Shown piece after piece: positions 192 through 56,586 of a DNA stretch of 60,947 nucleotides. How positions within the stretch are numbered: the stretch's first letter is position 1; each line of letters begins with the position of its first letter. The DNA is taken from positions 1 to 60,947 of the forward strand of contig JBBTVI010000027.1 in assembly GCA_038063315.1 (NCBI GenBank), written 5' to 3'. The position numbers were made by a program, and so were the translations under genes. Origin of the DNA: Patescibacteria group bacterium. GTDB taxonomy: Bacteria; Patescibacteriota; Minisyncoccia; Sungbacterales; HO2-52-23. A model generated the notes under the pieces. The model was not told the origin of the DNA. It worked only from the letters and a program-made list of their open reading frames with translations, and did no database searches.

Positions 192-2366
192 TCAAAGCGG
201 CGTCTGTAGCGCGCAGGAAAACTGCGAGTATCCGCCGTAACGATACGTGCCTCCATTGCTGCAATAGACCGATACGCCGACGGTCATGCCCGCAGGAAGA
301 TACAGGACGCGCGTGGCGGTTGATGATTGAAACTCACCAGTCGGGGGATATTCCGTGATTCCGTAGGTTCCGGCGACCCCACCTTCGCCCGAGCAGACGA
401 GATCGCCGTTGCAGGAGAATTGGTGGTGGATGTATCCCGGCATGACTCCATTCGTGTGGTTGTAGTGGTGTGAGGTGCACATATAGAGACCGGTCACCGG
501 AGCGGTAAAGAGGTTTGAGGCCGTACTATACCATCCGCCGGTGTTGCCGCCGAGCACCGTATCGTACGGCGCAAGATTCCAGCCCGTGGCGCACGTCTCC
601 CATCCGCCGGAGTGCCCGGCGAGGAAGAAGGGATGGGCCGGTATGCGCACGAAACCGGACGTGTCAAGACGCATACGCTCGGTATAGTTGGTGAGAAAGC
701 GCAGGGGATGGTTGCTTTCGGTGCCAACAGAGCCCGCGGCGCCGTCCCAGGCATCATGGCTGTATATTCCGACGCGGACACCGTTGTCGTTGGTCGCAAT
801 CATTTTCGCATGCGGGCCGCCGTGGAGATCAAGGACTTTATTCCAGCCCTGTGGATTGTAGGGATTTCCCGTTCCGATTCCGACATTGCCGGCATTGGTG
901 AGTGTTAGTTGGTCAGTCGCTCCAACGCCGAGTTGAAGTCGTGAAAGCCCGGCCCCGGTGCCGAGTCCGCCGTCGCCGTCAAACCACATTCGCGCATACC
1001 CGGTACCGTATCCAGGGAAAGGATTGATAATGAGATAGCGATCCAGGCGCACAGTGCCGTTGACAACATCCAATTTGGTGAGCGCGTCCGGTGAACCGGC
1101 ACCGGGGGTTACGGTATTGATGCCAACGTTGCCGCCCGTAGCGATGACCATGCGAAGCTGAGTATTTCCCTCGACAAAGTGAAGGCTATTTCCAAGTGTC
1201 CAGTTAATCCTCCCATTGTCGGGAACGGCAAAATCCAAAGTCGGATTAACTGCAACGAGCGCTATATTTCCATTCACTGTTAATTTTTGTGTCGGACTGA
1301 CCGTCCCAATTCCCACATTTCCGGTATTGGTACTATTGATACCGTCTGTGCCGTTCGTGGCCCATAATCCCGCTCCGCCCGGAGGAGGCGGACAATTGGT
1401 GCCGTCGGCGCGGCAGACGCTTTGTCCGGCAACAGTCAAATTTCCCGTGATGGCGGCGTCACCCGCGCTATTGAGTGTCAATTTTGTTGCGCTGTTATAG
1501 CCGATGCGGAACTGATTGTCAAAAATCACGTCGTAGAAATTCGTCGTTACATCGTCTTCCAGACGGAGGCCGGTGGTCCAGGCGTCGCTATTTGCTTTGA
1601 TGTGTAGGCGGCCGGATGGACTAGTTTTATTGATGCCGATATTTCCCGCGGCATCAATCGTCATTTTCGCGGTCGGCGTTCCACCGTTCGCGGTCCAAAA
1701 TTGGAGATCTCCGGTCGGACTGGTTGCGGATCCACTCCGCTTTGTGCTTGAGATGAGGCCCGTGCGTTTCTCGGCTCCGGTGAGCGCGGTGGAGCCGAAT
1801 GAGATGATTCCCATGTAGGAATTATTCGCAGTTGCTGACGAGCTAAGAATCTCTAAACCGTATCCTGCGCCGCCATGCACTTGTAGTATCCGTGGAGTTC
1901 CACCGTCGCCCATGCCACCGGGGGTGGCCGTATTGATTCCGATGTTGCCTCCGCCGATGATGTTGATTCCAAGAATGTCGGGATCTCCGGCATTAAAAAT
2001 GGCAAGCCTCGAGTTTGCGGGAATGCTGGCGCCGTTGAAATACCTCAAAATTGCGCTGTTGTACCATGGCGCGCCGAAGGTAGAACCGAGTATAATCTCA
2101 TTCCATGTTCCGGCTGCTCCGCCGGAAAGAAATCGCGGCTGGTCTAGATCTGTATTGTTCGGCGTAACCACATGCAGCTTCGCCCCCGGAGTTATTATAC
2201 CGATACCGAGAGACCCTGGCACCGTTAAATTATTCCCGCGGACCTGTACGCCGCCGGTCTGGGCCGCGCTTCTGGGGATATCGGTGACACCGAATATAAT
2301 GACCGCCACGATAAGAACGGTGATGCCTGCAATAAAAATTGTGAAATGGGGAAATTTGTGGTTCAT
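192..2366 (-). CDS. Membrane-anchored surface fibre protein with tail-fibre-like G-N-[IV]-G-I-[GN]-T repeats and a C-terminal C1q/TNF-like globular domain
   Basis: 724-aa ORF. N-terminal hydrophobic segment FTIFIAGITVLIVAVIIFGV. Repeated GNIGINTATPG / GNVGIGTVSPTQKLTV / GNVGINTVTPG / GNVGIGTGNPYNP motifs. C-terminal ~140 aa fit the gC1q pattern (FFLAG..., APYDTVLGGNTGGWY, LFTAPVTGLYMCT, LYLPAGMTVGVSVY, YSQFSCAL). Follows the minor-pilin genes on the same strand. Confidence 0.6.
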   Translation of the reverse strand: MNHKFPHFTIFIAGITVLIVAVIIFGVTDIPRSAAQTGGVQVRGNNLTVPGSLGIGIITPGAKLHVVTPNNTDLDQPRFLSGGAAGTWNEIILGSTFGAPWYNSAILRYFNGASIPANSRLAIFNAGDPDILGINIIGGGNIGINTATPGGMGDGGTPRILQVHGGAGYGLEILSSSATANNSYMGIISFGSTALTGAEKRTGLISSTKRSGSATSPTGDLQFWTANGGTPTAKMTIDAAGNIGINKTSPSGRLHIKANSDAWTTGLRLEDDVTTNFYDVIFDNQFRIGYNSATKLTLNSAGDAAITGNLTVAGQSVCRADGTNCPPPPGGAGLWATNGTDGINSTNTGNVGIGTVSPTQKLTVNGNIALVAVNPTLDFAVPDNGRINWTLGNSLHFVEGNTQLRMVIATGGNVGINTVTPGAGSPDALTKLDVVNGTVRLDRYLIINPFPGYGTGYARMWFDGDGGLGTGAGLSRLQLGVGATDQLTLTNAGNVGIGTGNPYNPQGWNKVLDLHGGPHAKMIATNDNGVRVGIYSHDAWDGAAGSVGTESNHPLRFLTNYTERMRLDTSGFVRIPAHPFFLAGHSGGWETCATGWNLAPYDTVLGGNTGGWYSTASNLFTAPVTGLYMCTSHHYNHTNGVMPGYIHHQFSCNGDLVCSGEGGVAGTYGITEYPPTGEFQSSTATRVLYLPAGMTVGVSVYCSNGGTYRYGGYSQFSCALQTPL

Positions 2367-3542: not shown

Positions 3543-3614
3543 AATTATGGGATATGAATTATGTATTGTGGGTATTCCTAAAGTCCATAATTCATAATAC
3601 AAGCCCCATAACCC
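3543..3614. repeat. Family B AT-rich palindrome (full)
   Basis: AATTATGGGATATGAATTATGTATTGTGGG - loop - CCATAATTCATAATACAAGCCCCATAAC. Confidence 0.85.
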
Positions 3615-10984: not shown

Positions 10985-12709
10985 TTAAGTCGTCTCCAGC
11001 AAATCCTCAAAACCAATCTTACCATGAAGCACCTTCAAAATGCCATCGTGGCGGAGCGAGAGCATTGCTTGACGCTTGGCCTCCGCTATGATATTCGCTT
11101 CCGAGGGCGCGGTGATGATGATTTTTTCAAGCTCCGGTGTCATTGCGAGCATCTCGAAAAGTCCGATGCGTCCGCGCGTGCCTTTGGGGCATGACGCCGA
11201 GACCTGGGGCTCGTAAATCGCGGGCGGAAGGGCTGCCATGAGGTTTTTTTGCACCGCATCGGGCATGGTGCGTATATCGGACATCAATGTTTCTTTCATT
11301 GCGCCATCCAAAGGAACTTCGCCGCGGGAATCCGGGCACAGACGCCGGACAAGCCGCTGGGCAACCGCAAGGATCAGTGTCGCGGGAATGAGAAACGGAT
11401 CAACGCCCATATCAATGAGCCGGGGGATCACGCCGACGGCGTTATTGGTGTGAAGAGTCGAAAGGACGAGATGACCGGTGAGCGCGGCGTGCACCGCGAG
11501 GGCCGCGGTTTCTTTGTCGCGAATCTCGCCGACCATGATGATGTCCGGATCCTGGCGGAGAATGTGCCGGAGGCCTGTGGCGAAGGTATAACCGATCTCG
11601 GCGCGCACGTGGGATTGGCTGATGCCGCTGATGTAATATTCCACCGGATCTTCCAAACTGACAATATTGACTTTTTCGTCATTGAGGATATTGAGGAGGG
11701 CGTAGAGCGTTGTGGATTTCCCCGATCCCGTCGGGCCGGTGATGAGGATCATGCCGTAAGGCCTCCGGATTGCGGCGCGGATTTTGTCCAGATTGTCCCC
11801 CTCAATGCCGAGATCGTCGAGCGACGTAACGCCTGTGGTCGGATCGAGGATGCGGACCGCGACTTTCTCGCCGAGGGCCGTCGGAAACGTGGAGACGCGA
11901 AAGTCAATCGCGCGGCCCACGATTTCGGCGTGGAACCGTCCGTCCTGCGGAATCCGCGTCTCGTCTATTTTTAAGCTCGTCAGAACCTTAATGCGCGTGA
12001 CGATGGCTGAATGCACCTGGGGCGGCAGGAGCAAACTCGTGTGGAGCGCTCCGTCCACGCGAAAACGCACGCGCACGTTCTCGCGCGTGGGCTCAATGTG
12101 GACGTCCGAGGCGCGGCCCTCGACCGCGTGGCGCAGGATCACGGCAAACATTTTCGTGATCGGGGCGTCCTCGATGATGACCGCGGGCTGTTCGCGCTCG
12201 ATGCGGACGGTCTCGGACAGCGATTCATATTCTTTTTTGAATTCTCCGAGCGCCTTGCCGACTTCTCCGGTTAAACTGCCATAGCGCTTCAGGATGTCGG
12301 CGAATGCCGACGGCGCAATGATGTATATGCGAATCGGCATATCGGTCTGCGCGCTGATGAATTTGAGCGCTTCGTGCGCGGCAATGTCATCCGGGTTGAC
12401 CATCCCGATCTCCATGTAGCCGTTTTTTTGGCCGAGGGGCGCCATCTGGTAGTGGGCGGCTGACTCTTCGGGAATCGCTTTGAACGCCTGATCAGGGATG
12501 GTCTCGATTTCTCCTGGCATCAGTTGCCGGATCGGGAAACCGCTGGTCGCGCTTTTTGCCTCAATGATCGCATTTTCGGCAACGCCAGCTTCGATAAGAA
12601 GCGCGTCTAAGGGCATTTTTTCCGCTTCAGACCGCTTCTGAAGAAGCCGGAGGTTTTTTACGGAGATCGCCTTTTTTTCAATAAGGATGTCGAGATAGGT
12701 TTTGGTCAT
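10985..12709 (-). CDS. pilB: Type IV pilus assembly ATPase PilB (GspE family)
   Basis: 574 aa. N-terminal T2SSE_N-like domain, Walker A GPTGSGKSTT, GEIRD, HLVLSTLHTN. The tetracysteine region is reduced. Confidence 0.9.
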   Translation of the reverse strand: MTKTYLDILIEKKAISVKNLRLLQKRSEAEKMPLDALLIEAGVAENAIIEAKSATSGFPIRQLMPGEIETIPDQAFKAIPEESAAHYQMAPLGQKNGYMEIGMVNPDDIAAHEALKFISAQTDMPIRIYIIAPSAFADILKRYGSLTGEVGKALGEFKKEYESLSETVRIEREQPAVIIEDAPITKMFAVILRHAVEGRASDVHIEPTRENVRVRFRVDGALHTSLLLPPQVHSAIVTRIKVLTSLKIDETRIPQDGRFHAEIVGRAIDFRVSTFPTALGEKVAVRILDPTTGVTSLDDLGIEGDNLDKIRAAIRRPYGMILITGPTGSGKSTTLYALLNILNDEKVNIVSLEDPVEYYISGISQSHVRAEIGYTFATGLRHILRQDPDIIMVGEIRDKETAALAVHAALTGHLVLSTLHTNNAVGVIPRLIDMGVDPFLIPATLILAVAQRLVRRLCPDSRGEVPLDGAMKETLMSDIRTMPDAVQKNLMAALPPAIYEPQVSASCPKGTRGRIGLFEMLAMTPELEKIIITAPSEANIIAEAKRQAMLSLRHDGILKVLHGKIGFEDLLETT

Positions 12710-16777: not shown

Positions 16778-18523
16778 TTATTCTCTTGTCACCCTCAACA
16801 CTTCCTCAATGGACGTGACGTGCTGGGCCGCGCGGATGATCCCTTCGGTCAGCATCGAGATCATCCCTTCGTCTTCGGCTTGTTTGTTGATGCGCTCCGC
16901 GTCTTCGTTTTTCATGATGAGTTCCCTGATTGTCGGCGTTACTTCAAGCACTTCATGGATGCCGATGCGTCCTTTGTATCCTTCCGGGCAATCGTCCGAG
17001 GGCCGCGGTCGCGCCCATTCGATGGCACCCGGCGCGGCTTTGGGGCCGATGACTTTTTCCTTTTTCAAGCGTTCGATCATGGCCTCAATCGGCACGTCTT
17101 TGCTGAGGGCGGCCTGTTCCGGCTCTGACAGAGTATAGACGTCTTTTTCTTCGCAGAGGCGCCGGACAAGGCGCTGGGAAATGATCGCGCTTACAGTCGA
17201 GGCGATAAGAAACGGTTCGATACCCATATCAATAAGCCGGGGGAGGGCTCCGGCCGCGGAATTGGTGTGGAGCGTGGAGAGAACCAGGTGCCCGGTGAGT
17301 GAAGCGTTGATCGCGAGCGCGGCGGTCTCCTTGTCGCGGATTTCGCCGACCATCAGAACGTTGGGATCCTGGCGGAGGAGTGACCGAAGGCCGTTGGCGA
17401 ATGTGAATCCGATATCGGCGTGAACCTGGCTTTGGTTGATCCGGGGCATGCGGTACTCGATCGGATCCTCGATGGTCGAGATGTTGACGCGGGGGGAGTT
17501 GAGCATCTCGAGCACGGTATAGAGAGTCGTGGTTTTCCCGGAGCCCGTGGGGCCGGTGGCGAGAATGATTCCGGTTGGCCGTTTGATGGCGTGTTCAATG
17601 CGTTCGAGATTCAATCCCCAGAAGCCCAGTTCATCCAGGGTGAATTTTTGCCCGGATTCCGGCAGGAGCCGGAGCACGATTTTCTCGCCGGTATAGACGG
17701 GCAGGATGGAGACGCGAAAGGAAATTTTGTACTCCTCGGTTTCTATTTTGAAGCGGCCGTCCTGCGGAAGGCGGTGCTCGTCAAGCCGGAGATTGGACAT
17801 GACTTTGATCCGCGCGACAATTCCCGGTGCAACCTGGCGCGGCAGCACCATGGCTTCGTGGAGAATTCCGTCAATGCGGTAGCGGACGAGCACTTCTTTT
17901 TCCAGCGGCTCGATGTGGATGTCCGATGCGCTCTGTAAAATGGCGTGGCGGACGAGGGTGTCCACGATCCGGATGATCGGGAGGTCCTCGGCCATCTTTT
18001 TGAGGTCTTCGGGTTCGGCCTCTTCGGTATGCGCGGCGACGGTTAATGCTCCGGACTCCTTGGTGATGATATCGCCGAATTCCGCTTCCAGGGTCTTCTG
18101 ATACTGGAGGAGCGCGCTTTTGATTGATTCCGGCGTTGTCAGGCGGGGCAGGATGCGGATGCCCTCCTTTTTTTTGATGAACTCTATGGTCTGGAGGTCG
18201 TCCGGATCGAGCATTGCGACCTCGAGCGACCCTTCGCCGCGCTTAAAAGCAATGATGTTATGCTTTTTCGCGATGGGTTCGGGAATGCTGCGGAGCACGT
18301 CCGGATCGATTTTCTCGCGCGTCAGATCAACAAAAGGAATGCCGAGGATGTAGGCCTCGAGACGCCGCAGGGCTTCCTCGGGAATATAGCCGCCGTTAAG
18401 GAGCGTGTCGCGGAGGGGCTTTCCCGCGGCCTCGGCTTCTTTGACGGCTTTTTGAAGGGCCGCAGGCGTGATAATGCCGGAGTCCCCCAAAAAATTTTTG
18501 AGTTGTGTTTCTTCAACCCTCAT
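16778..18523 (-). CDS. Second GspE/PilB-family secretion ATPase
   Basis: 581 aa. Two T2SSE_N-like N-terminal regions, Walker A GPTGSGKTTT, GEIRD, HLVLSTLHTN, C-terminal CPEGYKGRIGIHEVL. Confidence 0.9.
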   Translation of the reverse strand: MRVEETQLKNFLGDSGIITPAALQKAVKEAEAAGKPLRDTLLNGGYIPEEALRRLEAYILGIPFVDLTREKIDPDVLRSIPEPIAKKHNIIAFKRGEGSLEVAMLDPDDLQTIEFIKKKEGIRILPRLTTPESIKSALLQYQKTLEAEFGDIITKESGALTVAAHTEEAEPEDLKKMAEDLPIIRIVDTLVRHAILQSASDIHIEPLEKEVLVRYRIDGILHEAMVLPRQVAPGIVARIKVMSNLRLDEHRLPQDGRFKIETEEYKISFRVSILPVYTGEKIVLRLLPESGQKFTLDELGFWGLNLERIEHAIKRPTGIILATGPTGSGKTTTLYTVLEMLNSPRVNISTIEDPIEYRMPRINQSQVHADIGFTFANGLRSLLRQDPNVLMVGEIRDKETAALAINASLTGHLVLSTLHTNSAAGALPRLIDMGIEPFLIASTVSAIISQRLVRRLCEEKDVYTLSEPEQAALSKDVPIEAMIERLKKEKVIGPKAAPGAIEWARPRPSDDCPEGYKGRIGIHEVLEVTPTIRELIMKNEDAERINKQAEDEGMISMLTEGIIRAAQHVTSIEEVLRVTRE

Positions 18524-40793: not shown

Positions 40794-40862
40794 CCTCCCT
40801 TTATTAAAGGGAGGGGTTTTTGGTTTCCCCCTTTGAAAAAGGTGGAACAAGGGGGATTTTTG
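40794..40862. repeat. Family F hairpin repeats (pair)
   Basis: CCTCCCTTTATTAAAGGGAGG...TTTCCCCCTTTGAAAAAGGTGGAACAAGGGGGATTTT. Confidence 0.75.
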
Positions 40863-45920: not shown

Positions 45921-46048
45921 AATTCTCTCCTCCCATCCCCTGATCGGAGTTTTTTCAAAAACCATTAAACGACCACACCAATACGTAGCAAACCCACACG
46001 GCATTGTCAAACATTGAATCACCCAAAGATTTCCTCTACTGTGAATGC

Positions 46049-46744
46049 ATGACAGTAAAACCAACATTCACCACCAACGCTCTCTACCACCTGTACAACA
46101 GAGGCGTCGAAAAACGCCCGATTTTCCTTGACGACGGCGACCATTTCCGCTTTATCCACGGCCTCTACGAGTTCAACGATACAGCCACCGCGTCGAACCT
46201 TTTCTACAAAAAAGACGCCCTGCGCTCTTACGAAGTTAAGCTTCGTAAGAGGGAATTACTGGTCGAAATTCTCGCCTTTTGTTTGATGTCGAATCATTTC
46301 CATCTCTTCGTCCGTCAACGCCGCGAGTTGGGCATTACACAGTTTATGCACAAATTAGGAACCGGATATACAAATTACTTTAATAAAAAATATGAAAGAG
46401 TCGGCGGACTTTTTCAAGGCACCTTTCGCGCTAAGTACATCGAAAGCGACCGTCACTTTCTCTATCTTCCGCACTACATCCATCTCAACCCGTTGGATTT
46501 TATCGCACCGGAATGGCGTGAAAAACGCATCCGAAACAAAAATCAGGCGTTGCGATTCCTGGATAACTATCGCTGGTCCAGCTATCGCGACCATACGGGC
46601 CGTGAAAATTTTCCGTTCGTCATCGCGGGAAACGCCTTTCGCGAGTTATACACAACTCCGCAGAAATACCGACAATCCCTCGAACAATGGATTGCGGAAT
46701 TGCACAAAAATATCCGTGACATGGGCGAGATAATAATTGACTAA
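46049..46744 (+). CDS. REP-associated tyrosine transposase (RAYT; IS200/IS605-like Y1 HUH enzyme)
   Basis: YHLYNRGVEKRPIFLDDGDHFRF, the HUH motif in LMSNHFHLFV, GTFRAKYIESDRHFLYL and YIHLNPL (catalytic Tyr region). Family E REP hairpins lie immediately downstream and inside the gene. An alternative start lies at 46004. Confidence 0.8.
   Translation: MTVKPTFTTNALYHLYNRGVEKRPIFLDDGDHFRFIHGLYEFNDTATASNLFYKKDALRSYEVKLRKRELLVEILAFCLMSNHFHLFVRQRRELGITQFMHKLGTGYTNYFNKKYERVGGLFQGTFRAKYIESDRHFLYLPHYIHLNPLDFIAPEWREKRIRNKNQALRFLDNYRWSSYRDHTGRENFPFVIAGNAFRELYTTPQKYRQSLEQWIAELHKNIRDMGEIIID
46227..46249. repeat. Family E REP hairpin inside the RAYT coding sequence
   Basis: CTTACGAAG-TTAAG-CTTCGTAAG (9-bp arms, 5-nt loop). 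Encodes SYEVKLRKR in frame. Confidence 0.9.
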
Positions 46745-46748
46745 CAAA

Positions 46749-46771
46749 CTTACGAAGTTAAGCTTCGTAAG
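46749..46771. repeat. Family E REP hairpin, 5 nt downstream of the RAYT stop
   Basis: Identical 23-mer CTTACGAAGTTAAGCTTCGTAAG. Confidence 0.9.
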
Positions 46772-46789: not shown

Positions 46790-48535
46790 ATGCGGTCTTT
46801 CAGACTTACGAAGTTAAGCTTCGTAATAATGTCGGTGGTGTTAATAATCCTCGCGTATCCGCCGTCCACGGCGTGGCTGCGCTGGCTTATATTTATCGCG
46901 CTCGTGCCGTTGATACGCTTTTTAGATCATGCTGAAACAAAAAAGCGGGCGTTTTGGGGCCTGTTTCTTTTTTCGTTTCTTTTTCTCGGGTGGAATATCC
47001 GATGGTTTTTCTCGGTATTACCGGCTGACTGGGCTGGCATTGAAAACCCCGTTGCCGGAGCAGCGCTCGTCGGTATTATCTGGCTCCTCACGACAATCGT
47101 CCTATCTCTCCCAATGGCCGCAGTCGGGACACTCTATGCGACGATTCAAACAAAGCGCGCCCAACAACACATCACAAAGCCCCTGCTATTCCTTCTGCCG
47201 TCATTGTGGATCCTCGGCGAGTACTTACGCGCGTGGCTTTTCAGCGTTTTCTGGGTCGGACCGGGGACTCTTCTCGGGCCGCACTGGACATTCGGATTTC
47301 TCGGATATGACCTGACGAATTTCCCACTCCTCCTTCAATCATCAAAACTTGTCGGCGTCTATGGCGCCGGATTTCTGCTTATCCTTGCCAATGTGTGCGC
47401 CGCTCGAATAATCGCGACGCGCGGGCTACACATTCATCGGCGACTTACGTTTACGAGGTTTCACCTCGTAAGATTCTCAAATATTGCTATCGTTTGCGCT
47501 ATCGTGACGGCGTTGTTATTCTACGGTGCGCGACAACTTAAATCGGATCGTTCCCCGCCCGGTGAGATAAAAAAAATCGTCCTCCTCCAAACCAACGCCT
47601 ACCATTACGCCTTTCACGACGCGGCCGCCTTCGAACAATTTATCCGCGACGAACTGAACCTCCTGCGCCGGGCCGCCTATCAAAAACCGGACATCGTGAT
47701 TCTCCCCGAAGGATCGCGCTTGACGCTCAGATTCGGCGAACGCACTCCGGCTATTCTCCAAGACATCTTCGGAACAGAGCGCTCGATCATCATCGTTGAC
47801 AGCGCGCGTCTCAGCCAGACCGGGCCATCCAAAGAGCGGACATTCATCTATGACACGCGCGCGGGCCTCATCGGCATCAGCGACAAAACACTCACAATTC
47901 CGGGTGGGGAATATTTGCCGACGGTTCTAACGACGGCTGCGCGCTTCGCCGGGCAAAAAAAATGGCTGGATCGCTTCGCCCACCTTCGGCATATCATCCC
48001 CGGCGAATATAGTCCGCACGCCGCGCTTGACCCGCGCCGCCAGCCGCTTGGCATTCAACTCTGCTCCGCGGTTCTTGCGCCTCATCTTTGGCGGGATCCC
48101 GTGAAAAACGCGAGCGCGCAGCTGCTCGTCAACGCCGCGAGCCAGGGGCTTTTCAAGGGATCGGCGTTCCGCGATCAAGCGCTCGCGTGGCTCCGTTTTT
48201 TTGCGGCCTCCAACGATCGGTGGCTTGCCCAGGCGGCCAACAGCGGATACTCATATATTATTGACAACAACGGCCAAGTCCGCGCCCGCACCGACACTCT
48301 CGGTCTTCAGACAATTGCCGGAATTGTTGAATACCGCGCGACAAAAACGCCTTACGTCCGCTTCGGCGATTGGCCGCTCATTGCCGCCATCATTGTGCTT
48401 GTCTTGACCATTGTATCCGGCCGGCCAATTACGATTAAAATAAACCGCGAAATAAAACCCAATAGCGGCGGACACCCGCACACGCCGCCGGAAAACGCAG
48501 GACGGTTTGAAGCTGCGTCAGACGAGCCATGTTGA
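46790..48535 (+). CDS. lnt: Apolipoprotein N-acyltransferase-like protein (Lnt paralogue 1)
   Basis: 581 aa. N-terminal polytopic domain plus a C-terminal CN-hydrolase domain with DIVILPEG (Glu), SDKTLTIPGGEYLP (Lys) and GIQLCSAV (Cys). GAGG lies 8 nt upstream of the ATG. Confidence 0.75.
   Translation: MRSFRLTKLSFVIMSVVLIILAYPPSTAWLRWLIFIALVPLIRFLDHAETKKRAFWGLFLFSFLFLGWNIRWFFSVLPADWAGIENPVAGAALVGIIWLLTTIVLSLPMAAVGTLYATIQTKRAQQHITKPLLFLLPSLWILGEYLRAWLFSVFWVGPGTLLGPHWTFGFLGYDLTNFPLLLQSSKLVGVYGAGFLLILANVCAARIIATRGLHIHRRLTFTRFHLVRFSNIAIVCAIVTALLFYGARQLKSDRSPPGEIKKIVLLQTNAYHYAFHDAAAFEQFIRDELNLLRRAAYQKPDIVILPEGSRLTLRFGERTPAILQDIFGTERSIIIVDSARLSQTGPSKERTFIYDTRAGLIGISDKTLTIPGGEYLPTVLTTAARFAGQKKWLDRFAHLRHIIPGEYSPHAALDPRRQPLGIQLCSAVLAPHLWRDPVKNASAQLLVNAASQGLFKGSAFRDQALAWLRFFAASNDRWLAQAANSGYSYIIDNNGQVRARTDTLGLQTIAGIVEYRATKTPYVRFGDWPLIAAIIVLVLTIVSGRPITIKINREIKPNSGGHPHTPPENAGRFEAASDEPC
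46805..46826. repeat. Family E REP hairpin inside the first codons of lnt paralogue 1
   Basis: CTTACGAAGTTAAGCTTCGTAA. Encodes LTKLSFV. Confidence 0.9.
47451..47472. repeat. Family E-like REP hairpin inside lnt paralogue 1
   Basis: TTACGAGGT-TTC-ACCTCGTAA(G), preceded by a partial copy CTTACGT. Encodes TFTRFHLVRF. Confidence 0.8.
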
Positions 48536-49983: not shown

Positions 49984-51144
49984 TCAGTCCGGCGCAAAGT
50001 AAAATCCCAACATGCCCATGGACGCGCCTAGAAGCGCCTTACCGGACGGATTCGAATATATAGCGGCAATAGAGATAATATCGCCCGGGCGAATGCGCCG
50101 CCGCGTCCACAACTGTTGTGTCTCCCACTCCCACGGAGGGGACGCGCGCTTCTTGGTTATGAGTTGGGCAATGCGCCTGCCATTAAGAGACACGATCAGC
50201 TTTTCTCCGCCCTCCCATCCATGGAGGTGCCCACCGAATCCGAGCAGCGCGCCGGGACGCCGGAATGTGTACTCGGCCGTGCTTACGCCATTCACTCGCG
50301 CTCCGCGAAATTCCGCGTGGTCGCTGCGGGCCGGTATTGCAAAGGTGTCGTCCAGAACAAGACCGATATTCTCCACGCCGTTCGGCGCGCGCAAACCTTC
50401 CATATCCTGCGCATATGCGCATGGCGTATCGTCAATCCGTAATCGCTGATACTCAACCCTCCGTGAGCGCCGTCCGGTTGCGGCGCGCTCCACCCTCATA
50501 CGGAGCGCCGCCGACACATCGCGATAAAAACCGCCTGGACCGTACGGGGGGAAAGGATTATGAACAATGGCATGAAGCATCAACGGAGTGCCGGATGCAA
50601 CGAACATCCCATAGGGCTCGGGAAAAATGACTGGCGCGTAGTTGGCGTCCAACGCGCCGGTAATAAGTTCCTGATAAAAAATAGGGCAGACGCCATCCGT
50701 CTCATCAAGACGCTGAAGCGTTGAGTGATGCAAAACAACCAAAGGGGCATTTCGCACGTCCCATCGAAATTCCGTGATCCAGAAATCCTCCGTTGCCACA
50801 TACGCGTCCGACCCGAGAAAAACACCGTGTCCGGCATCGTGCAGTTTGTTCAGCGAGGGTTCGTGTGCATGCGGCGGCAACTGAGCAATATGCATGGTCT
50901 CCAGCACAAAAGCCGCCCCTCGATCCGCGCGAGACGCGCTTTCGCTCCAGCGATATAAAGAAACGGCGGCGACCGCGATGAGTAAAACGACCGCCGCGGC
51001 AATACGGCGCGTTTTTGATTGTATCGGAAAAAGAGTAAACACGATGCGTAGTAATCTCTCACAGCCGTCATTGCTTCGTCGTCTAACTCCTCGCAATGAC
51101 GATTTATCGTAAAATTTGTAAGCGGGTGTAAAAGGTACGGACAA
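49984..51144 (-). CDS. Membrane-anchored PHM/DBH-like (copper type II ascorbate-dependent monooxygenase-like) protein, paralogue 1
   Basis: Motifs in 386-aa ORF numbering: HH at 139-140 (VVLHHSTLQRLD...C), H191/H195 (LMLHAIVHNP), H306-x-H308 (GGHLHGWEGGE), PGDIISIAAIYSN and M376/M378 (GASMGMLGFYFAP). The first ~30 codons are a family A repeat, so the true start may be the GTG at 51042. Confidence 0.45.
   Translation of the reverse strand: MSVPFTPAYKFYDKSSLRGVRRRSNDGCERLLRIVFTLFPIQSKTRRIAAAVVLLIAVAAVSLYRWSESASRADRGAAFVLETMHIAQLPPHAHEPSLNKLHDAGHGVFLGSDAYVATEDFWITEFRWDVRNAPLVVLHHSTLQRLDETDGVCPIFYQELITGALDANYAPVIFPEPYGMFVASGTPLMLHAIVHNPFPPYGPGGFYRDVSAALRMRVERAATGRRSRRVEYQRLRIDDTPCAYAQDMEGLRAPNGVENIGLVLDDTFAIPARSDHAEFRGARVNGVSTAEYTFRRPGALLGFGGHLHGWEGGEKLIVSLNGRRIAQLITKKRASPPWEWETQQLWTRRRIRPGDIISIAAIYSNPSGKALLGASMGMLGFYFAPD
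51051..51100. repeat. Family A mini-element (internally deleted)
   Basis: GTAATCTCTCACAGCCGTCATTGC-TTCGTCGTCTAACTCCTCGCAATGAC. Lies inside the long-ORF N-terminus of PHM-like paralogue 1. Confidence 0.8.
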
Positions 51145-51149
51145 TCCCC

Positions 51150-52163
51150 TTACTTTGTGTCCGGCGCAAAATAAAACCCGATTTGTCCCATGGCTGAGTC
51201 CACCAATGGCGCGGCCTGCGGATTGGAATACGTTGCGTCAATGGACAAAACATCACCCTTCGCCACGCGCCGAAACAATTTTATATGCGGCGTCTCCCAC
51301 GACCATAGATTATCAGCGGTCTGACGCGAAACAAGCGATGCGAGAATGTCGCCATTCAAAAAAACTCCCACGGACTCACCGCCTTCCCAGGCATGGATAT
51401 GTCCTCCAACCCCGAATAACATGCCAGATGACATAAAGGTATACTCGGCGGTGTGAAACGGTCCGTTCCGCGCCTGCGCCGCTGTGAAGCGCGCGTGCGC
51501 GCTGCGGGCCGGAATTACGAATGTTTCGACTGTTACCGGATCAGCGCACGGCGAATCATCAAGACGCAGACGCCTGTACTCCAGCCGCCTATGCCGCCGA
51601 GAAACCGTCGCCCGTTCAACGTCCATCACTAACCGAACGGAAACATTCTCATAAATCCCGCCCGGGCCGTGCGGCGAAACAGGATTGTGCGCCATGACAT
51701 TGACCTCAAGCGGCGTCCCTTTCGGCAGAAAAATCCCGTAGGGAGAGGGAAAAACAACCGAAGTATGTATTGTATCAATACTGCCGGTAAAAAGCTCTTC
51801 CCACGATCTCGGACACACAGGATCCATCCGATCTATTCTCTGAAAAACAGCATGATGCACAATATGCGGGGGGGCATTCTGCACCTCCCAACGGAGCCCC
51901 GTGACCCAAAGATCGTCTCCCGCCGCCACTACCGGCGACAAAAGATATACCCCATGCCCTGCGCTGAAGATTTTATCCTTGAGCGGCGTATGCGGATGCG
52001 AAGGAAAACTCGCCAACGCATTGGTCTCAATTACAAAGCGCCGCGATCCACCGACCATCCCGGCCGCATCGCGAGAGCCGCCACGCATGAACAACCACCC
52101 GAAAAACGCGACAACCAACAATCCAAGCGCGCCCCATATGTACAAAGGCCGTCTCATTTCCAT
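51150..52163 (-). CDS. Membrane-anchored PHM/DBH-like protein, paralogue 2
   Basis: Same motif set: IVHHAVFQRID..C, VMAHNP, GGHIHAWEGGE, KGDVLSIDATYSN, SAMGQIGFYFAP. N-terminal TM. Start at 52163 or 52157, because the upstream codons are a family B repeat. Confidence 0.45.
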   Translation of the reverse strand: MEMRRPLYIWGALGLLVVAFFGWLFMRGGSRDAAGMVGGSRRFVIETNALASFPSHPHTPLKDKIFSAGHGVYLLSPVVAAGDDLWVTGLRWEVQNAPPHIVHHAVFQRIDRMDPVCPRSWEELFTGSIDTIHTSVVFPSPYGIFLPKGTPLEVNVMAHNPVSPHGPGGIYENVSVRLVMDVERATVSRRHRRLEYRRLRLDDSPCADPVTVETFVIPARSAHARFTAAQARNGPFHTAEYTFMSSGMLFGVGGHIHAWEGGESVGVFLNGDILASLVSRQTADNLWSWETPHIKLFRRVAKGDVLSIDATYSNPQAAPLVDSAMGQIGFYFAPDTK

Positions 52164-52193
52164 AATACATAATACATGCCCCATAATTCATCC
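52159..52193. repeat. Family B half-site between PHM-like paralogues 3 and 2
   Basis: TTCCATAATACATAATACATGCCCCATAATTCATCC. Confidence 0.8.
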
Positions 52194-53251
52194 TATTCAT
52201 CCCACGCGGCATAAAATCCGACCATTCCCATTGCCGAACCCGTCAAATCTTCGGCGAACAAATTGGAGTATGTCGCGGAAATCGAGAGAACATCGCCTGC
52301 CTCCAAACGTACCCGACGCCTGATCCAGTAAAAGGGAGTTTCCCATAGCCATAGCCAATCTCCTTTCTGCCTGCTGTTTAATGAAAATAACGCGCGCCCG
52401 TTAAGCAGCAGCGCCAATTCTTCTCCGCCTTCCCAGCCGTGGGTATGCCCGCCAAAACCCACAAGAGTCCCTGGCCGTTGAACGACATACGCGCCGGATT
52501 CTGCGTGCCCGTCCTCGGGCCGCGCGGCCGCCATTGTCCAATGGCGCGCGCCCGCCGGAATACTAAAAACCTCTGCCGGCGCGACATTTTTCCGTAATGG
52601 GTATACACACGGTGTCCCACTCAACCGCAAACGATTATACTCCAATGCGCGAAAACGACGCGACAGCGTTGCCGCCTCCACTGTCAAATTCAAACGCGCG
52701 GCAACATTATCGTACGTCCCGCCGGATCCGTACGGAGGAAGAGGGTTATGCAACATCGCGCTAATGCCGATGGGGGTTCCGGCCGGGAGAAAAATCCCGA
52801 ACGGCTCCGGAAATTCAATATGCCGCGGCGCGTCAATGGCCGTTGTCGCAATTTCCTGAAACCACGACGCGGGACAAAGCGGATCCGGCCGGTCAAGACG
52901 CTGAACCAGCGCATGATGGATCACCTCCTGCGGAGCATTCTCCGCGCGCCATTCCAGCGCGGTCACCCACAGCGGCGTGTCCGTCACCCATATATCGGAC
53001 ACCGCAACAACACCGTGTCCCTGCGCGACCACCGTATCGGTACTGGGATTATGCGGGTGTGGTACAAGCTGCAAAATCGGCCGCGTCTTGATGGTGAACT
53101 GGCGCGACACCGCCGACCCATGGGTTGCATCGGAAACAATGCGCCATGCAATGAAACCAAAAACCAAGACGCAAGATGCGCTGGCAATGATAATCGTACG
53201 CGCCGTTGCAATGTGACGCAGATGACCAAAAAATTGCGCCCTTGTGATCAT
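52193..53251 (-). CDS. Membrane-anchored PHM/DBH-like protein, paralogue 3
   Basis: Same motif set: VIHHALVQRLD..C, AMLHNP, GGHTHGWEGGE, AGDVLSISATYSN, SAMGMVGFYAAW. ORF trimmed to the ATG at 53251, because the upstream 45 codons are a family C repeat. Confidence 0.45.
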   Translation of the reverse strand: MITRAQFFGHLRHIATARTIIIASASCVLVFGFIAWRIVSDATHGSAVSRQFTIKTRPILQLVPHPHNPSTDTVVAQGHGVVAVSDIWVTDTPLWVTALEWRAENAPQEVIHHALVQRLDRPDPLCPASWFQEIATTAIDAPRHIEFPEPFGIFLPAGTPIGISAMLHNPLPPYGSGGTYDNVAARLNLTVEAATLSRRFRALEYNRLRLSGTPCVYPLRKNVAPAEVFSIPAGARHWTMAAARPEDGHAESGAYVVQRPGTLVGFGGHTHGWEGGEELALLLNGRALFSLNSRQKGDWLWLWETPFYWIRRRVRLEAGDVLSISATYSNLFAEDLTGSAMGMVGFYAAWDE

Positions 53252-53292
53252 AAAGTTTCTCAATAACGTTAAGACAAAATGTCTCTTTTTTT

Positions 53293-53374
53293 CTGTCATT
53301 CCCGCGCAGGCGGGAATCCAGATTTCTCTCTTTGAGAAGGCAAAACCTGGACCCCCGCCTTCGCGGGGGTGACA
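53293..53374. repeat. Family C element between lnt paralogue 2 and PHM-like paralogue 3
   Basis: CTGTCATTCCCGCGCAGGCGGGAATCCAGATTT...AACCTGGACCCCCGCCTTCGCGGGGGTGACA. Confidence 0.9.
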
Positions 53375-53385
53375 AAAGCAATGCA

Positions 53386-55236
53386 TTATTCGCCAACCTC
53401 CTGATGCTCCATCGTCTCCTCATTCCCCAACACACCGAAAAGTCTTCGTTGCGTCCTCCTGCGCCCGTACAAAAATAATAGCGCCACCAACACTCCGGCA
53501 AGCGCGACAGGCCAGTCGCCGAAACGAACGTAAGGGGTTTTTGTTGTCCGGTAGTCAACGTCCCCCGTCAGAATCGTATCGCCCAGTGCGTTAGTCCGTG
53601 CGCGGATAGCGCCCGTCTCGTCAATGATGTAGGAATATCCGCCGTTTGCGGCCTGCACAACCCAACGATCATTCATCGCCGCGTACGATTGCAGCATGGC
53701 GCGGGATTGCGCGTGAAATGCCGGATGATTCAACAGGCCGACGCTCGCGGCATTGATCAAAACCTGACTGCGATTCGCCGTTTCCCGCCAGAGAACCGGG
53801 GAAAAAATCGTGGTGCAGAGTTGCACGCCTTCAGCCAAACGCCTGGGGTCCAGAGACGCGAACGGCGCAACCTCTCCTTTGTAAATCCGGCGATACCAAT
53901 TAAAATGCCGGATCACGTTGGTCATCCCGAACAATTTAAGAACGCCATGAACAGTATAAGCCAAATATTCCCCATTAGGCACTAAAAAAACCTTGTCGCT
54001 CACCGCCACCAATCCTTTCTCTGTATCATAGAAAAAAAGCCGCGCCTTGGACGGCCTCTGAAGGTCGAGCCGCCCGCTATCAATCACTAACGCCGGGTTA
54101 TTCGCATGGAAAATCCGCGCAAGAACATCCGGCGTCTCTCCGCGAAAGCGGAGCGTGAGATCCGACGCTTCGGGCAAAACAACCACGTCGGGCCGGACTG
54201 TCGCAGTGTTCTTTAGTAATACCAATTCTCTATCAATGTAATTTTTGTACACGGCCGGATCAATGGTGCGGTAAATCAATTCATTGGTTTGCACCAGCGT
54301 AAATCGCTTTTTTTGAGCAACATCCCGACCGCGTCCTGCAAACTGCGCGCGACCGTACAGTAGTAAAACAACAATAACGGCGCCGACGGATAAGGTTCTT
54401 ATGAAGCTTAACTTCGTAAGTAATTGAAAACGCCTCTCTCGTTCGTCATTGCGAGCGACCCCGAGTTTGGCGAGGGGGAGCGCGGCAATCCATCTTTTTC
54501 TGGATTGCGGAGCCTGTCCCGAGCGAAGCGAGGGATCTAACTCCTCGCAATGACTCTTGAGGCGGCTTCTAAGGTGCATAAAAATCCCCCTCAATCCCCC
54601 TTTTTCAAAGGGGGAAGCATTAAAAAATTCCGCGATCGCGACATTCACGAGTACAATAAGAGCGCTTGCGCCGTAGACGCCGAATAGTTTTGTGGACTGC
54701 AAAAGCAATGGGAAATCCGCCAGGGCATAGCCCAGAAATCCGGGAGCCCAATGCGGGCCGAGCAGCGACCCCGGGCCAATCCACGCCAACGAATAGAACC
54801 ACGCCCGGCCATACTCGCCAAGAATCCAGAAAAAAGGAAACACAAATAAACGCGTACGTGCCGGGAAAAAAGTAGCTCCGTATCCCGCTAGTCCCATTGG
54901 CAGGGCGAAAATAGCTGCTGTCGCGCACCAATACAAAAAAATAATCAAAAGCCCGGTGGACGGACTCGTCACCCCGGCCCATTTTGCGGATGAGGCGGCA
55001 AAAAACCACCGAAGCGTCCATGCCGCAAAAGCGAATTCCATGAGAAACACGCCCCAAAACACCTGTTTGCGGCTTGCCCGCCGGAGAAAAAAACAAAAAG
55101 GAACAAGAGCAATCCACAGGAACCAGCGCGATACGGCCGGGGGATAGGCCGCAATGAGCAGTACCACAGAAATGAGCGGGGCTAAATTGCCCAACAGCCG
55201 TCGGCCCTTTATCGCTTCAAAAAAACGCATCTTCAT
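53386..55236 (-). CDS. lnt: Apolipoprotein N-acyltransferase-like protein (Lnt paralogue 2) carrying a ~74-aa repeat-derived in-frame insertion
   Basis: 616 aa, collinear with paralogue 1 (YPPAVSRW, LRWFF, WILGEYGRAW, VVVLPEA, SDKVFLVPNGEYLA, GVQLCTT, FGDWP). The segment SPFEKGGLRGIF...SHCEEL...WIAALPLAKLGVARND...LLTKLSFI is encoded by repeat families F, A and E. Confidence 0.75.
   Translation of the reverse strand: MKMRFFEAIKGRRLLGNLAPLISVVLLIAAYPPAVSRWFLWIALVPFCFFLRRASRKQVFWGVFLMEFAFAAWTLRWFFAASSAKWAGVTSPSTGLLIIFLYWCATAAIFALPMGLAGYGATFFPARTRLFVFPFFWILGEYGRAWFYSLAWIGPGSLLGPHWAPGFLGYALADFPLLLQSTKLFGVYGASALIVLVNVAIAEFFNASPFEKGGLRGIFMHLRSRLKSHCEELDPSLRSGQAPQSRKRWIAALPLAKLGVARNDERERRFQLLTKLSFIRTLSVGAVIVVLLLYGRAQFAGRGRDVAQKKRFTLVQTNELIYRTIDPAVYKNYIDRELVLLKNTATVRPDVVVLPEASDLTLRFRGETPDVLARIFHANNPALVIDSGRLDLQRPSKARLFFYDTEKGLVAVSDKVFLVPNGEYLAYTVHGVLKLFGMTNVIRHFNWYRRIYKGEVAPFASLDPRRLAEGVQLCTTIFSPVLWRETANRSQVLINAASVGLLNHPAFHAQSRAMLQSYAAMNDRWVVQAANGGYSYIIDETGAIRARTNALGDTILTGDVDYRTTKTPYVRFGDWPVALAGVLVALLFLYGRRRTQRRLFGVLGNEETMEHQEVGE
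54398..54420. repeat. Family E REP hairpin (one mismatch) inside lnt paralogue 2
   Basis: CTTATGAAGCTTAACTTCGTAAG, in inverted orientation relative to the 46749 copy. Encodes LLTKLSFI on the minus strand. Confidence 0.85.
54445..54554. repeat. Family A element inside the lnt paralogue 2 coding sequence
   Basis: GTCATTGCGAGCGACCCCGAGTTTGGCGAGGGGGAGCGCGGCAATCC ... GGATTGCGGAGCC...CTCGCAATGAC, read in frame by the 616-aa ORF. Confidence 0.85.
54580..54617. repeat. Family F hairpin repeat inside lnt paralogue 2
   Basis: AAAAATCCCCCTCAATCCCCCTTTTTCAAAGGGGGAAG, nearly identical to the 2391 copy. Encodes SPFEKGGLRGIF on the minus strand. Confidence 0.85.
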
Positions 55237-55287: not shown

Positions 55288-55521
55288 GTCATTGCGAGGA
55301 GTGCAGCGGAACGATCCCTCCCCTTGCTCGGAACAATCTCCGCAATCCAGGGGGAGTCGTCATTGCGAGGAGTCCTGCTGCAGGACGACGAAGCAATCCA
55401 GTATTTCTGCCTTTACGGATTGTTTCGTCGCTGCTGCTCCTCGCGAGGACGGTCGAAATGGATTGCCGCGCGCCCCCTCATCAAACTCGGGGTCGCTCGC
55501 AATGACGGCTGTAAGGGGTTA
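55288..55521. repeat. Family A compound element
   Basis: Four half-units. The 3' 165 nt are nearly identical to window positions 1-163. Confidence 0.85.
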
Positions 55522-55572: not shown

Positions 55573-56586
55573 ATGCAGCAGAGAAAATATGGCAATCCGC
55601 AGAGCGGAGGAGCTGGCGTATGGCTGGTGATTTTTGGTCTGCTCGCTTTATTGATAGGGATCGTGATCGTTGCCGGACGCAGCAAAAAAATCGCCAATCT
55701 CCAACGACGCGGCGCGGAGACAGACAACATCCTTCCTGAAGAGCCCGAGCGCAAACTCGCGGATACCGATACAGACGGCGACGGTCTCAAGGATTGGGAG
55801 GAGGTGCTCTACGGCACAAAAACCGACAATCCTGATTCGGACTCAGACGGCGCAACGGACAATGAAGAAGTCCGCAATTCCCACGATCCGCTCAAGCCCG
55901 GGCCGAATGATAAACTCGTCATCAAGGACATCACCGCAGCGTTGCCCGCCGCCAAAGAAAAAAAGAACCTCACTGACGAATTGAGCGCTCTTTTTGTACA
56001 GAAATATTTTGCCGATAAGGTGCTCAGCGACGCGCCCTTTGACCAACAGCAGCTTGTCAACGATCTCCTGCAACAAATCTACAGCGGCCCGATTGCGTCG
56101 CCGGTTGTTGATCCAAAAACCTTTGCCATCTCTGAGGACAACTCGCCCGCGGCCATCAAAAAATACCTGAATTCATACATCGGCGCCCTGGAACGAAATC
56201 TCGTCCTCATCGCAACGGGCCAAAATCCGTTGCTCATCATCACTAATATTCACCAACTCGATGACGTCGAAAAAGAGCTTGTCAAATTAGACCCGTTTAT
56301 CGCCCAGTATCAAGCCGCTTATGGCGAACTCATCAAATTGCCCGTCACATCCTCATGGACAAAATATCATGAGCGCGCGCTCAACCTCCTGCTGACTCAT
56401 ACTGCGCTGCTCCAGGAGGCGCGCTCGGCCAGCGACGACATCCTCAAAATAGCTCCGCTTCTCTCCCAATTCTCCGCCACGATTCCCGAACTCACCGCCC
56501 TCATAAACGACCTCAAGGCCGCGGTCCGCGCGAGCAACATCACATTTGGCGAAAATGATCCGGCGGGAAAGCTGTTGCAGCTCTAA
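55573..56586 (+). CDS. Single-pass membrane protein with thrombospondin-type-3-like acidic repeats
   Basis: ORF trimmed to the ATG at 55573, because the upstream codons are a family A repeat. TM VWLVIFGLLALLIGIVIVAG. Acidic repeats DTDTDGDGLKDWEE...DNPDSDSDGATDNEE. Confidence 0.55.
   Translation: MQQRKYGNPQSGGAGVWLVIFGLLALLIGIVIVAGRSKKIANLQRRGAETDNILPEEPERKLADTDTDGDGLKDWEEVLYGTKTDNPDSDSDGATDNEEVRNSHDPLKPGPNDKLVIKDITAALPAAKEKKNLTDELSALFVQKYFADKVLSDAPFDQQQLVNDLLQQIYSGPIASPVVDPKTFAISEDNSPAAIKKYLNSYIGALERNLVLIATGQNPLLIITNIHQLDDVEKELVKLDPFIAQYQAAYGELIKLPVTSSWTKYHERALNLLLTHTALLQEARSASDDILKIAPLLSQFSATIPELTALINDLKAAVRASNITFGENDPAGKLLQL

Follow-up and report, generated by a model that had tools for sequence, protein, structure and literature searches.

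How does a gene for a membrane enzyme come to be read, in a single frame, through three dispersed repeats that elsewhere lie mostly between genes? The question is raised by a gene of the apolipoprotein N-acyltransferase (Lnt) family, here called Lnt2 (paralogue 2), on contig JBBTVI010000027.1 of an uncultured groundwater bacterium of the Patescibacteria (assembly GCA_038063315.1); the window is the whole 60,947-nucleotide stretch of this contig that was analyzed. The 616 codons of Lnt2 include neither a stop nor a frameshift, and they run through a family F hairpin, a family A element and a repetitive extragenic palindromic (REP) hairpin of family E, which together we refer to as the composite. 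We think it quite likely that an intact Lnt-family gene acquired non-autonomous palindromic repeats (a REP hairpin, a CGTC-tagged REP pair and a G/C hairpin) in the cytoplasmic loop between transmembrane (TM) helices 6 and 7.

The composite lies in the reading frame of Lnt2

An earlier note on this DNA had described the composite as lying in frame in Lnt2, and translation of 54398–54620 does give the peptide that it quoted. Across 54390–54625 the frame of Lnt2 itself is the sole open one of six, the other five containing between two and six stops each; taken singly, the elements leave two to four of the six frames open. The family A copy is bounded by 11-bp terminal inverted repeats (TIRs), GTCATTGCGAG and CTCGCAATGAC, and has a central stem, GCAATCCA/TGGATTGC. 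An imperfect extension of this stem reaches to approximately 54431–54568, the 3′ part of the spacer between the F and A elements pairing in the fold with 54431–54444. The peptide encoded by that spacer, MHLRSRL, is aligned by BLASTP with LHIHRRL of the other Lnt-family gene in the window (paralogue 1), which suggests that native loop sequence stands between F and A. Inspection of the sequence shows no obvious direct duplication at either end of the family A copy in Lnt2, although the boundaries of the element are uncertain without an empty site.

Folding of the composite as DNA recovers all three stems (z = −4.44 relative to shuffled sequences), as does folding of the sense RNA, with an energy of −91 kcal/mol (z = −4.73, again relative to shuffles). 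We also considered whether the gene might be split at the repeats, or might contain internal signals, and rejected this: there is no stop, and scanning the composite for consensus terminators and promoters found neither. A Shine-Dalgarno-like GAGGGGGA stands 6 nt before the in-frame ATG of M220, and makes internal initiation a formal possibility only.

Identity of the host gene and position of the insertion

In Pfam searches Lnt2 matches LNT_N over residues 25–200 (50 bits, with a cut-off of 27.1) and CN_hydrolase over residues 350–564 (30.2 bits, with a cut-off of 23.2). The residues of the catalytic triad, E356, K415 and C474, occupy invariant columns in an alignment of 30 sequences (28 homologues and both window paralogues), and profile comparison aligns the triad motifs with PETA, KQKLVPFGEY and ICYEV of Pseudomonas aeruginosa Lnt. 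The profile built from these 30 members matches P. aeruginosa Lnt from end to end (E = 2.6e-38, profile positions 9–526) and likewise Escherichia coli Lnt (E = 1.5e-35), with the motifs PE, K..LVP.GEY and C(Y/S)E lining up with those of the solved proteins. An AlphaFold model of Lnt2 has a predicted local distance difference test (pLDDT) score of 86.4 and a predicted template-modeling (pTM) score of 0.87, and its confidence falls, to 51–73, only at approximately residues 205–270, which correspond to the insert. The model matches solved Lnt structures along their entire length, and its top 24 Foldseek matches are all Lnt proteins, with E values of 2.5e-18 to 1.4e-14 and template-modeling scores on the target of 0.69–0.77. 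On the NCBIfam equivalog model for Lnt, TIGR00546 (cut-off 132.9 bits), Lnt2 scores 75.4 bits, its match being broken into two stretches by the insert, and paralogue 1 scores 124.9 bits. Both paralogues thus appear to be divergent members of the Lnt family, and because both score below the cut-off we prefer ‘Lnt-family’ to ‘Lnt’ as the safer label.

A HMMER search of 1.84 billion representative sequences yielded 127 homologues at E ≤ 1e-30; those listed are mostly ~500–570 aa long, and in nearly all of them the match is interrupted at the insert, giving two stretches. When 28 homologues are aligned with the two window paralogues, the loop leading from the last LNT_N helix to the next TM helix is seen to be a handful of residues long, and Lnt2 has ~65–70 residues more than the 28 homologues at this place. 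This excess fits the summed extents of the elements, ~196 nt (family A with its imperfect extension, ~136; family F, 36; the REP, 24), and the composite segment is, as had been proposed, a true insertion relative to the family. No close orthologue of Lnt2 was found in a 5.8-billion-protein index, queried with both the whole protein and its repeat-free C-terminal half, among GTDB representatives or in JGI metagenomes; these searches returned only the window's own sequences or relatives at 25–47% identity. Among genomes, the nearest matches to the window reach no more than 25% identity and belong to Saccharibacteria, Armatimonadota, Planctomycetota and a cyanobacterium (Synechococcus). The insert peptide likewise has no homologue among the 5.8 billion proteins.

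The insert has a net charge of +9, and the cytoplasmic segments of Lnt2 contain 5, 4, 2, 16 (the insert) and 4 lysine plus arginine residues, with 1, 1 and 1 in the three short periplasmic loops. The helix count of the model, together with the positive-inside rule, predicts a cytoplasmic position for the insert, in the TM6-TM7 loop. In E. coli Lnt the N- and C-termini are inside and the nitrilase domain is outside, and this placement of the insert agrees with that topology. The site had previously been described as preceding the last TM helix; it does precede TM7, the last helix before the CN-hydrolase domain (Table 1), but an eighth helix comes after that domain. Structure prediction had also been put forward as a check on the location of the insert in a loop, and the model bears this out in that the fold is otherwise that of Lnt, with which the insert is predicted to be compatible. 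Helices are predicted within the insert, where confidence is low.

Table 1. Positions in the window of Lnt2, the elements of its composite insert and related features.
Feature	Position	Strand	Sequence or residues	Basis or remark
Lnt2 (paralogue 2), Lnt-family open reading frame, 616 aa	53386..55236	minus		one unbroken reading frame
Family F hairpin	54580..54617	minus	CCCCCTTT-GAA-AAAGGGGG + GATTGAGGGGGATTTT; residues 207–219 = ASPFEKGGLRGIF	
Spacer between F and A, apparently in part native loop sequence	54555..54579	minus		BLASTP alignment and fold; otherwise inferred
Family A element	54445..54554	minus	residues 228–264 = SHCEELDPSLRSGQAPQSRKRWIAALPLAKLGVARND (SHCEEL…LGVARND)	
REP hairpin (family E)	54398..54420	minus	sense strand CTTACGAAGTTAAGCTTCATAAG; residues 273–280 = LTKLSFIR	one stem mismatch
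TM7, last helix before the periplasmic CN-hydrolase domain (predicted)	54352..54396	minus	~residues 281–295	model and positive-inside rule
CN-hydrolase (nitrilase-like) domain of Lnt2	53545..54189	minus		Pfam
Catalytic triad of Lnt2, E356	54169–54171	minus		family alignment
Catalytic triad of Lnt2, K415	53992–53994	minus		family alignment
Catalytic triad of Lnt2, C474	53815–53817	minus		family alignment
Lnt-family paralogue 1, 581 aa as listed	46790..48535	plus		
In-frame REP-like hairpin of paralogue 1, TM6-TM7 loop	47444..47473	plus	…RR-LTFTRFHLVR-FS…	
RAYT-like Y1 transposase open reading frame	46004..46744	plus		Pfam Y1_Tnp, 34.6 bits (cut-off 23)

Repeat families across the window

Copies of all three families recur in the window, mostly between open reading frames (ORFs) or at ORF ends, in keeping with the earlier description of the elements as otherwise intergenic. 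The REP pattern of family E is present four times with no more than two mismatches (46227, 46749, 46805 and 54398). Family F has a second copy with two mismatches at 2390–2426, which sits 5′ of the minus-strand gene 192..2366, and a copy of its core at 40827. Family A is the most abundant, with 13 copies bounded by the 11-bp TIRs (extendable to ~20 bp with mismatches) and 85–161 nt between the terminal repeats; for each of the three families, zero copies are expected from shuffled sequences. Nearly all of the family A copies are located between ORFs or at the extreme ends of stop-to-stop ORFs, and only that in Lnt2 sits deep within a long ORF. Repeat clusters between genes are common (F and A at 2390–2543, A and A at 55288–55506, and others). 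A terminal 11-mer of family A at 11139–11149, in a PilB gene, was examined as another candidate insertion and rejected as native sequence, …FEMLAMTPELEK… (…LAMT…) being aligned with the paralogue of that gene.

Family A is organized as a head-to-head pair of units, CGTC-ATTGCGAG…GCAAT-CCA. All 12 of the aligned copies contain (C/T)GTC-ATTGCGAG, the GGCAATC is invariant, with CA coming next in at least 90% of copies, and the second arm, where present, is inverted (TGGATTGC…CTCGCAATGAC). The CGTC tag, a stem starting with AT, the CCA tail and the head-to-head dimers are all traits of the CGTC REP superfamily; the stem and loop dimensions are not, with a 5-bp ATTGC/GCAAT stem surrounding 15–30 nt of partly paired sequence. 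On sequence, family A resembles this superfamily, and it is not among the families described in PMC3733652. A literature search for the repeat core ‘cattgcgag’ returned unrelated matches only, and a loose one for Rickettsia palindromic elements fared no better.

The family E copies elsewhere in the window lie inside a transposase ORF at 46004–46744 (46227–46249) and just after it (46749–46771 and 46805–46827). The encoded protein scores 34.5 bits on the NCBIfam model REP_Tyr_transpos, below its cut-off of 80 bits, and the tag of family E is GTAAG, not GTAG. We regard this Y1 transposase, which is similar to REP-associated tyrosine transposases (RAYTs), as a candidate mobilizer of family E. No match was found when the RAYT-like protein was compared by sequence with solved structures. 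The perfect REP within the transposase ORF is read in another phase (…ALRSYEVKLRKRE…) than the REPs of the Lnt genes; the RAYT model spans it without net insertion (residues 66–164 correspond to profile positions 27–132), and it may be an insertion, a replacement or native.

A repeat in the corresponding loop of paralogue 1

Paralogue 1 is located 5 kb from Lnt2, and the two proteins are 41–44% identical (BLASTP), the sequences flanking the insert being collinear, as had been claimed, at 41% identity. Its LNT_N match in Pfam is 61.4 bits and its CN_hydrolase match 23.0 bits, just under the cut-off of 23.2. The database gene call for it (P0003, 568 aa) has its start at M14 (46829), which is likely to be the true one. 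The listed start at 46790 makes the ORF read through the REP at 46805–46827 (MRSFRLTKLSFVI…); P0003 begins at M14 right after this REP, which is therefore probably in the 5′ leader of the gene.

A REP-like hairpin at the matching loop of paralogue 1 was another of the features reported earlier, and we find it at 47450–47472, as TTACGAGGT-TTC-ACCTCGTAA, with a single mismatch to a REP-like consensus that also fits the E family and a related palindrome family of the window. The sequence of paralogue 1 at 47444–47473 reads CTTACG-TTTACGAGGTTTCACCTCGTAAG, and the loop is ~13 residues longer than in P0004 and P0005, closer homologues with a short loop. The two REPs share one phase of translation, CTT ACG giving Leu-Thr and, further on, AGA giving Arg, and relative to TM7 their positions agree to within a few residues. 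The proposal that the two genes were hit independently is favored by the similarity of the Lnt2 REP to its own family, the low protein identity and the fact that the hairpins are different REP variants. A shared ancestral REP seems unlikely because the Lnt2 REP differs from its family's other copies in the window by only one or two mismatches, at a protein identity of only 41–44%. It is more likely that a single permissive or preferred loop was hit twice independently, a plausible though unproven reading, as there is no empty site.

We note that a homologue 33–40% identical (P0001; L002 6731–6759, Logan SRR22388197) has a TM6-TM7 loop that is ~29 residues longer and contains a tandem TTCCATACTTCATA, present twice and resembling the CCATAATACATA family of the window. 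This tandem motif is found nowhere else in its 13.7-kb locus, and it may or may not be a dispersed repeat there. It could be imagined that the TM6-TM7 loop is a recurrent and possibly targeted landing site (three families in Lnt2, one hairpin in paralogue 1 and perhaps P0001), with the basic peptide co-opted or the mRNA fold regulatory, but we hold this to be quite unlikely.

Assembly support

The exact 616-aa protein is present on two contigs, that of the window and a 25-kb contig in ENA from the Hainich groundwater well H51 (0.2 µm fraction), which was assembled independently and has an identical insert. The two are 99.987% identical over 7,851 nt without gaps, the sole difference, at 56347, lying outside the gene; the name of the ENA contig gives a coverage of ~6x. 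A 3.7-kb contig, L010 (Logan ERR3858130), equals the window from the center of family A onward, over the REP and the C-terminal half of Lnt2, and upstream of the switch it has a different family A arm, unrelated DNA and a stop in the Lnt frame. We note that in L010 2440–2600, compared with the window at 54508, the C-terminal half of Lnt2 is joined by way of this other family A arm to a PilB-type gene. The simplest reading of L010 is a switch of path in the assembly graph, because the switch point lies in a dispersed repeat of a short contig.

Origin of the composite

In the explanation that we favor, acquisition of the repeats by an intact Lnt-family gene, the elements would have spread as selfish DNA by transposition or recombination, family E probably by means of the neighboring RAYT-like Y1 transposase. 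Selection would have purged insertions at other places in the gene or in frames bearing stops, and the survivors would represent what a short and structurally unconstrained cytoplasmic loop tolerates. The first element may have enlarged the loop, presenting a larger neutral target, possibly itself a hairpin, for later ones. The peptide is basic (+9), as expected of a cytoplasmic loop, and is most likely a passenger without a function of its own. By simple arithmetic, the chance of remaining open and in frame is ~1/18 for a single random block and well below 1% for three separate events; that the frame survived at those odds suggests that the events were filtered by selection, and argues that Lnt2 was functional when the insertions occurred.

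Several observations weigh against this explanation. The hairpins are almost undecayed, and there may not yet have been time for selection to act on the insertions. Both paralogues score below the TIGR00546 cut-off, and their enzymatic function is something that we infer from sequence. Since no close orthologue is present in the collections searched there is no empty site, and the age and order of the insertions are not demonstrable. Finally, the exit of L010 inside family A, with its upstream stop, might reflect a genuine variant with a broken gene. It could be asked whether Lnt2 has recently become a pseudogene, or can be dispensed with, paralogue 1 leaving it free to decay, with the repeats as the first lesions and the open frame a matter of luck. 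The proximity of a second Lnt paralogue 5 kb away, hairpins near-perfect enough that the insertions may be young, an L010 junction that would truncate the gene and a TIGR00546 score under that of paralogue 1 (75 vs 125 bits) are all compatible with this. We nevertheless consider it unlikely, since 616 codons are maintained without a stop or frameshift, the sole open frame of six across the composite is the one in use, the triad and family-invariant residues are retained and the structural model is confident; the low TIGR00546 score is in part due to splitting of the match by the insert.

Nor need the elements have arrived separately. A ready-made repeat cluster could have been copied in one step by recombination or gene conversion between repeat copies, a route that would call for one tolerated event at ~1/18 in place of three at well below 1%, and for which intergenic clusters of the same families, common in the window, could have served as source; that family A copies can become joined to one another, whether in assembly or in vivo, is seen in L010. 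However, the order E-A-F is found at no other locus in the window, the sole other F/A pair is reversed, and the alignment of MHLRSRL with the native loop of paralogue 1 suggests host sequence between F and A, so that we view arrival in one step as possible, if on balance improbable. Co-option of the insert, as a basic or amphipathic cytoplasmic module, as an mRNA fold tuning translation or stability, or for internal initiation at M220, appears very unlikely. The strong sense RNA fold that might recommend it (z = −4.7) belongs to the repeats wherever they are located, and the helices predicted in the insert are in a part of the model where confidence is low. An in-frame ATG does follow GAGGGGGA, and the same loop is enlarged in paralogue 1 and P0001; against these stand a peptide lacking homologues in 5.8 billion proteins, the lack of terminator or promoter consensus in the composite and the published view of such inserts as neutral loop passengers (PMC3733652). 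An assembly artefact, with repeats wrongly inserted or joined, has to be considered for any region built of dispersed repeats, the more so with a coverage of ~6x according to the ENA contig name and with L010 taking another path through family A. It is nonetheless extremely improbable here: the 60.9-kb and 25-kb contigs are identical in this region with only one difference in 7.85 kb, each element is shorter than a typical read, and the two flanks together make up one gene in one frame, collinear with the paralogue, which a false join would not rebuild.

Comparison with other in-frame repeats

In-frame insertion of such repeats into genes has precedents. Di Nocera, De Gregorio and Rocco (2013; PMC3733652) described REPs of the GTAG and CGTC types in many species, mostly intergenic and occasionally in frame within genes; over half of the intragenic REPs are dimers or groups, and clusters encode 43–82 aa. 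Both uvrA paralogues of Opitutus terrae carry REPs, and the apolipoprotein N-acyltransferase Sala_3138 of Sphingopyxis alaskensis has an in-frame CGTC-1 REP at residues 152–160 (PMC3733652, supplementary table). Intragenic REP inserts were argued to be neutral, being in linkers or loops, and no transposase is known for the CGTC-type repeats (PMC3733652). The Lnt2 case is similar in that mostly intergenic repeats are found in frame in genes, in clusters, in a pair of paralogues and in an Lnt gene. It differs in having three different families side by side in one loop, in the family A units, which exceed the canonical CGTC REP dimensions of an 8–9 bp stem and a 4–5 nt loop (PMC3733652, Table 1), in the site, a cytoplasmic inter-TM loop of a membrane enzyme, and in the host, which has no close relative among public genomes.

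The earlier note also drew a parallel with the Rickettsia palindromic elements (RPEs). The likeness in behavior stands, but the novelty was overstated, as in-frame REPs are found well beyond Rickettsia (PMC3733652, PMC10969869) and a 2024 review describes in-frame fusions by intragenic miniature inverted-repeat transposable elements as ‘not unusual’ (PMC10969869). As summarized in these two papers, RPEs (Ogata et al. 2000/2002) were the first in-frame palindromic elements, ~100–150 bp long and inserted in unrelated housekeeping genes, and the RPE peptide was judged compatible with the fold of the host protein (PMC10969869, PMC3733652); the RPE-bearing proteins are reported there as expressed (PMC3733652). 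As described, RPEs are similar to family A (110–136 bp) in size and behavior. They differ in coming from an obligate intracellular alphaproteobacterium.

REPINs, RAYT-mobilized REP doublets, provide further context. Family E copies cluster inside and next to the ORF of a Y1 (IS200-like) transposase, and family A is an inverted doublet forming one long hairpin, both of which recall REPIN/RAYT systems; departures from these are the GTAAG in place of GTAG, the score of the transposase (34.5 vs 80 bits) and the presence of one REP inside the transposase ORF. With the solved Lnt proteins of E. coli and P. aeruginosa (PDB 5n6h, 5n6m, 8aq2 and others), Lnt2 shares eight TM helices, a periplasmic nitrilase-like domain and the E-K-C triad, at 16–19% identity over structural alignments; the TM6-TM7 loop is ~11 residues in P. 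aeruginosa Lnt compared with ~75 in Lnt2.

The phenomenon itself is thus already known, with the same behavior and the same explanation as for the published in-frame repeats, and no new mechanism is opened. Lnt2 stands out for its lineage, for three different families stacked in one loop, for its setting in a membrane protein and for the matching hit in its paralogue. It is a clean case in which selfish palindromic repeats lengthen a protein without breaking it, in a polytopic membrane enzyme of a poorly sampled groundwater lineage, and it marks the Lnt TM6-TM7 loop as tolerant of insertions, with possible uses in tagging or engineering. It also carries a warning for the annotation of repeat-rich metagenome-assembled genomes, where repeats lengthen many ORFs and inflate the proteins predicted from them, and where they break contigs or join them wrongly, as L010 exemplifies.

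Other features of the window

The two Lnt paralogues are separated by three tandem paralogous genes at 49984–53386 (386, 344 and 397 aa), of which one, 52193..53386, was scanned against Pfam and gave no match. The longest ORF forms of two of these genes begin in repeats, one reading …SSLRGVRRRSND… and the other …IPACAGMTEKK…, a peptide typical of CGTC REPs. Elsewhere, two paralogous genes for PilB-type (T2SSE) ATPases, at 10985–12709 and 16778–18523, are 41% identical.

An A+T-rich motif family (CCATAATACATAAT… / TTATGGGGTATGTATTATG…) has 16 sites in the window, with 0.02 expected (for example at 3585, 4483, 5228, 14626, 16743, 52160, 56648 and 60828). Where copies were compared with the ORF list, they are located where genes begin or end, frequently in inverted pairs, and they could be promoters, terminators or another family of repeats. 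The GC skew flips from positive to negative near 33 kb, at the peak of the cumulative skew, and this switch may mark a replication terminus or origin.

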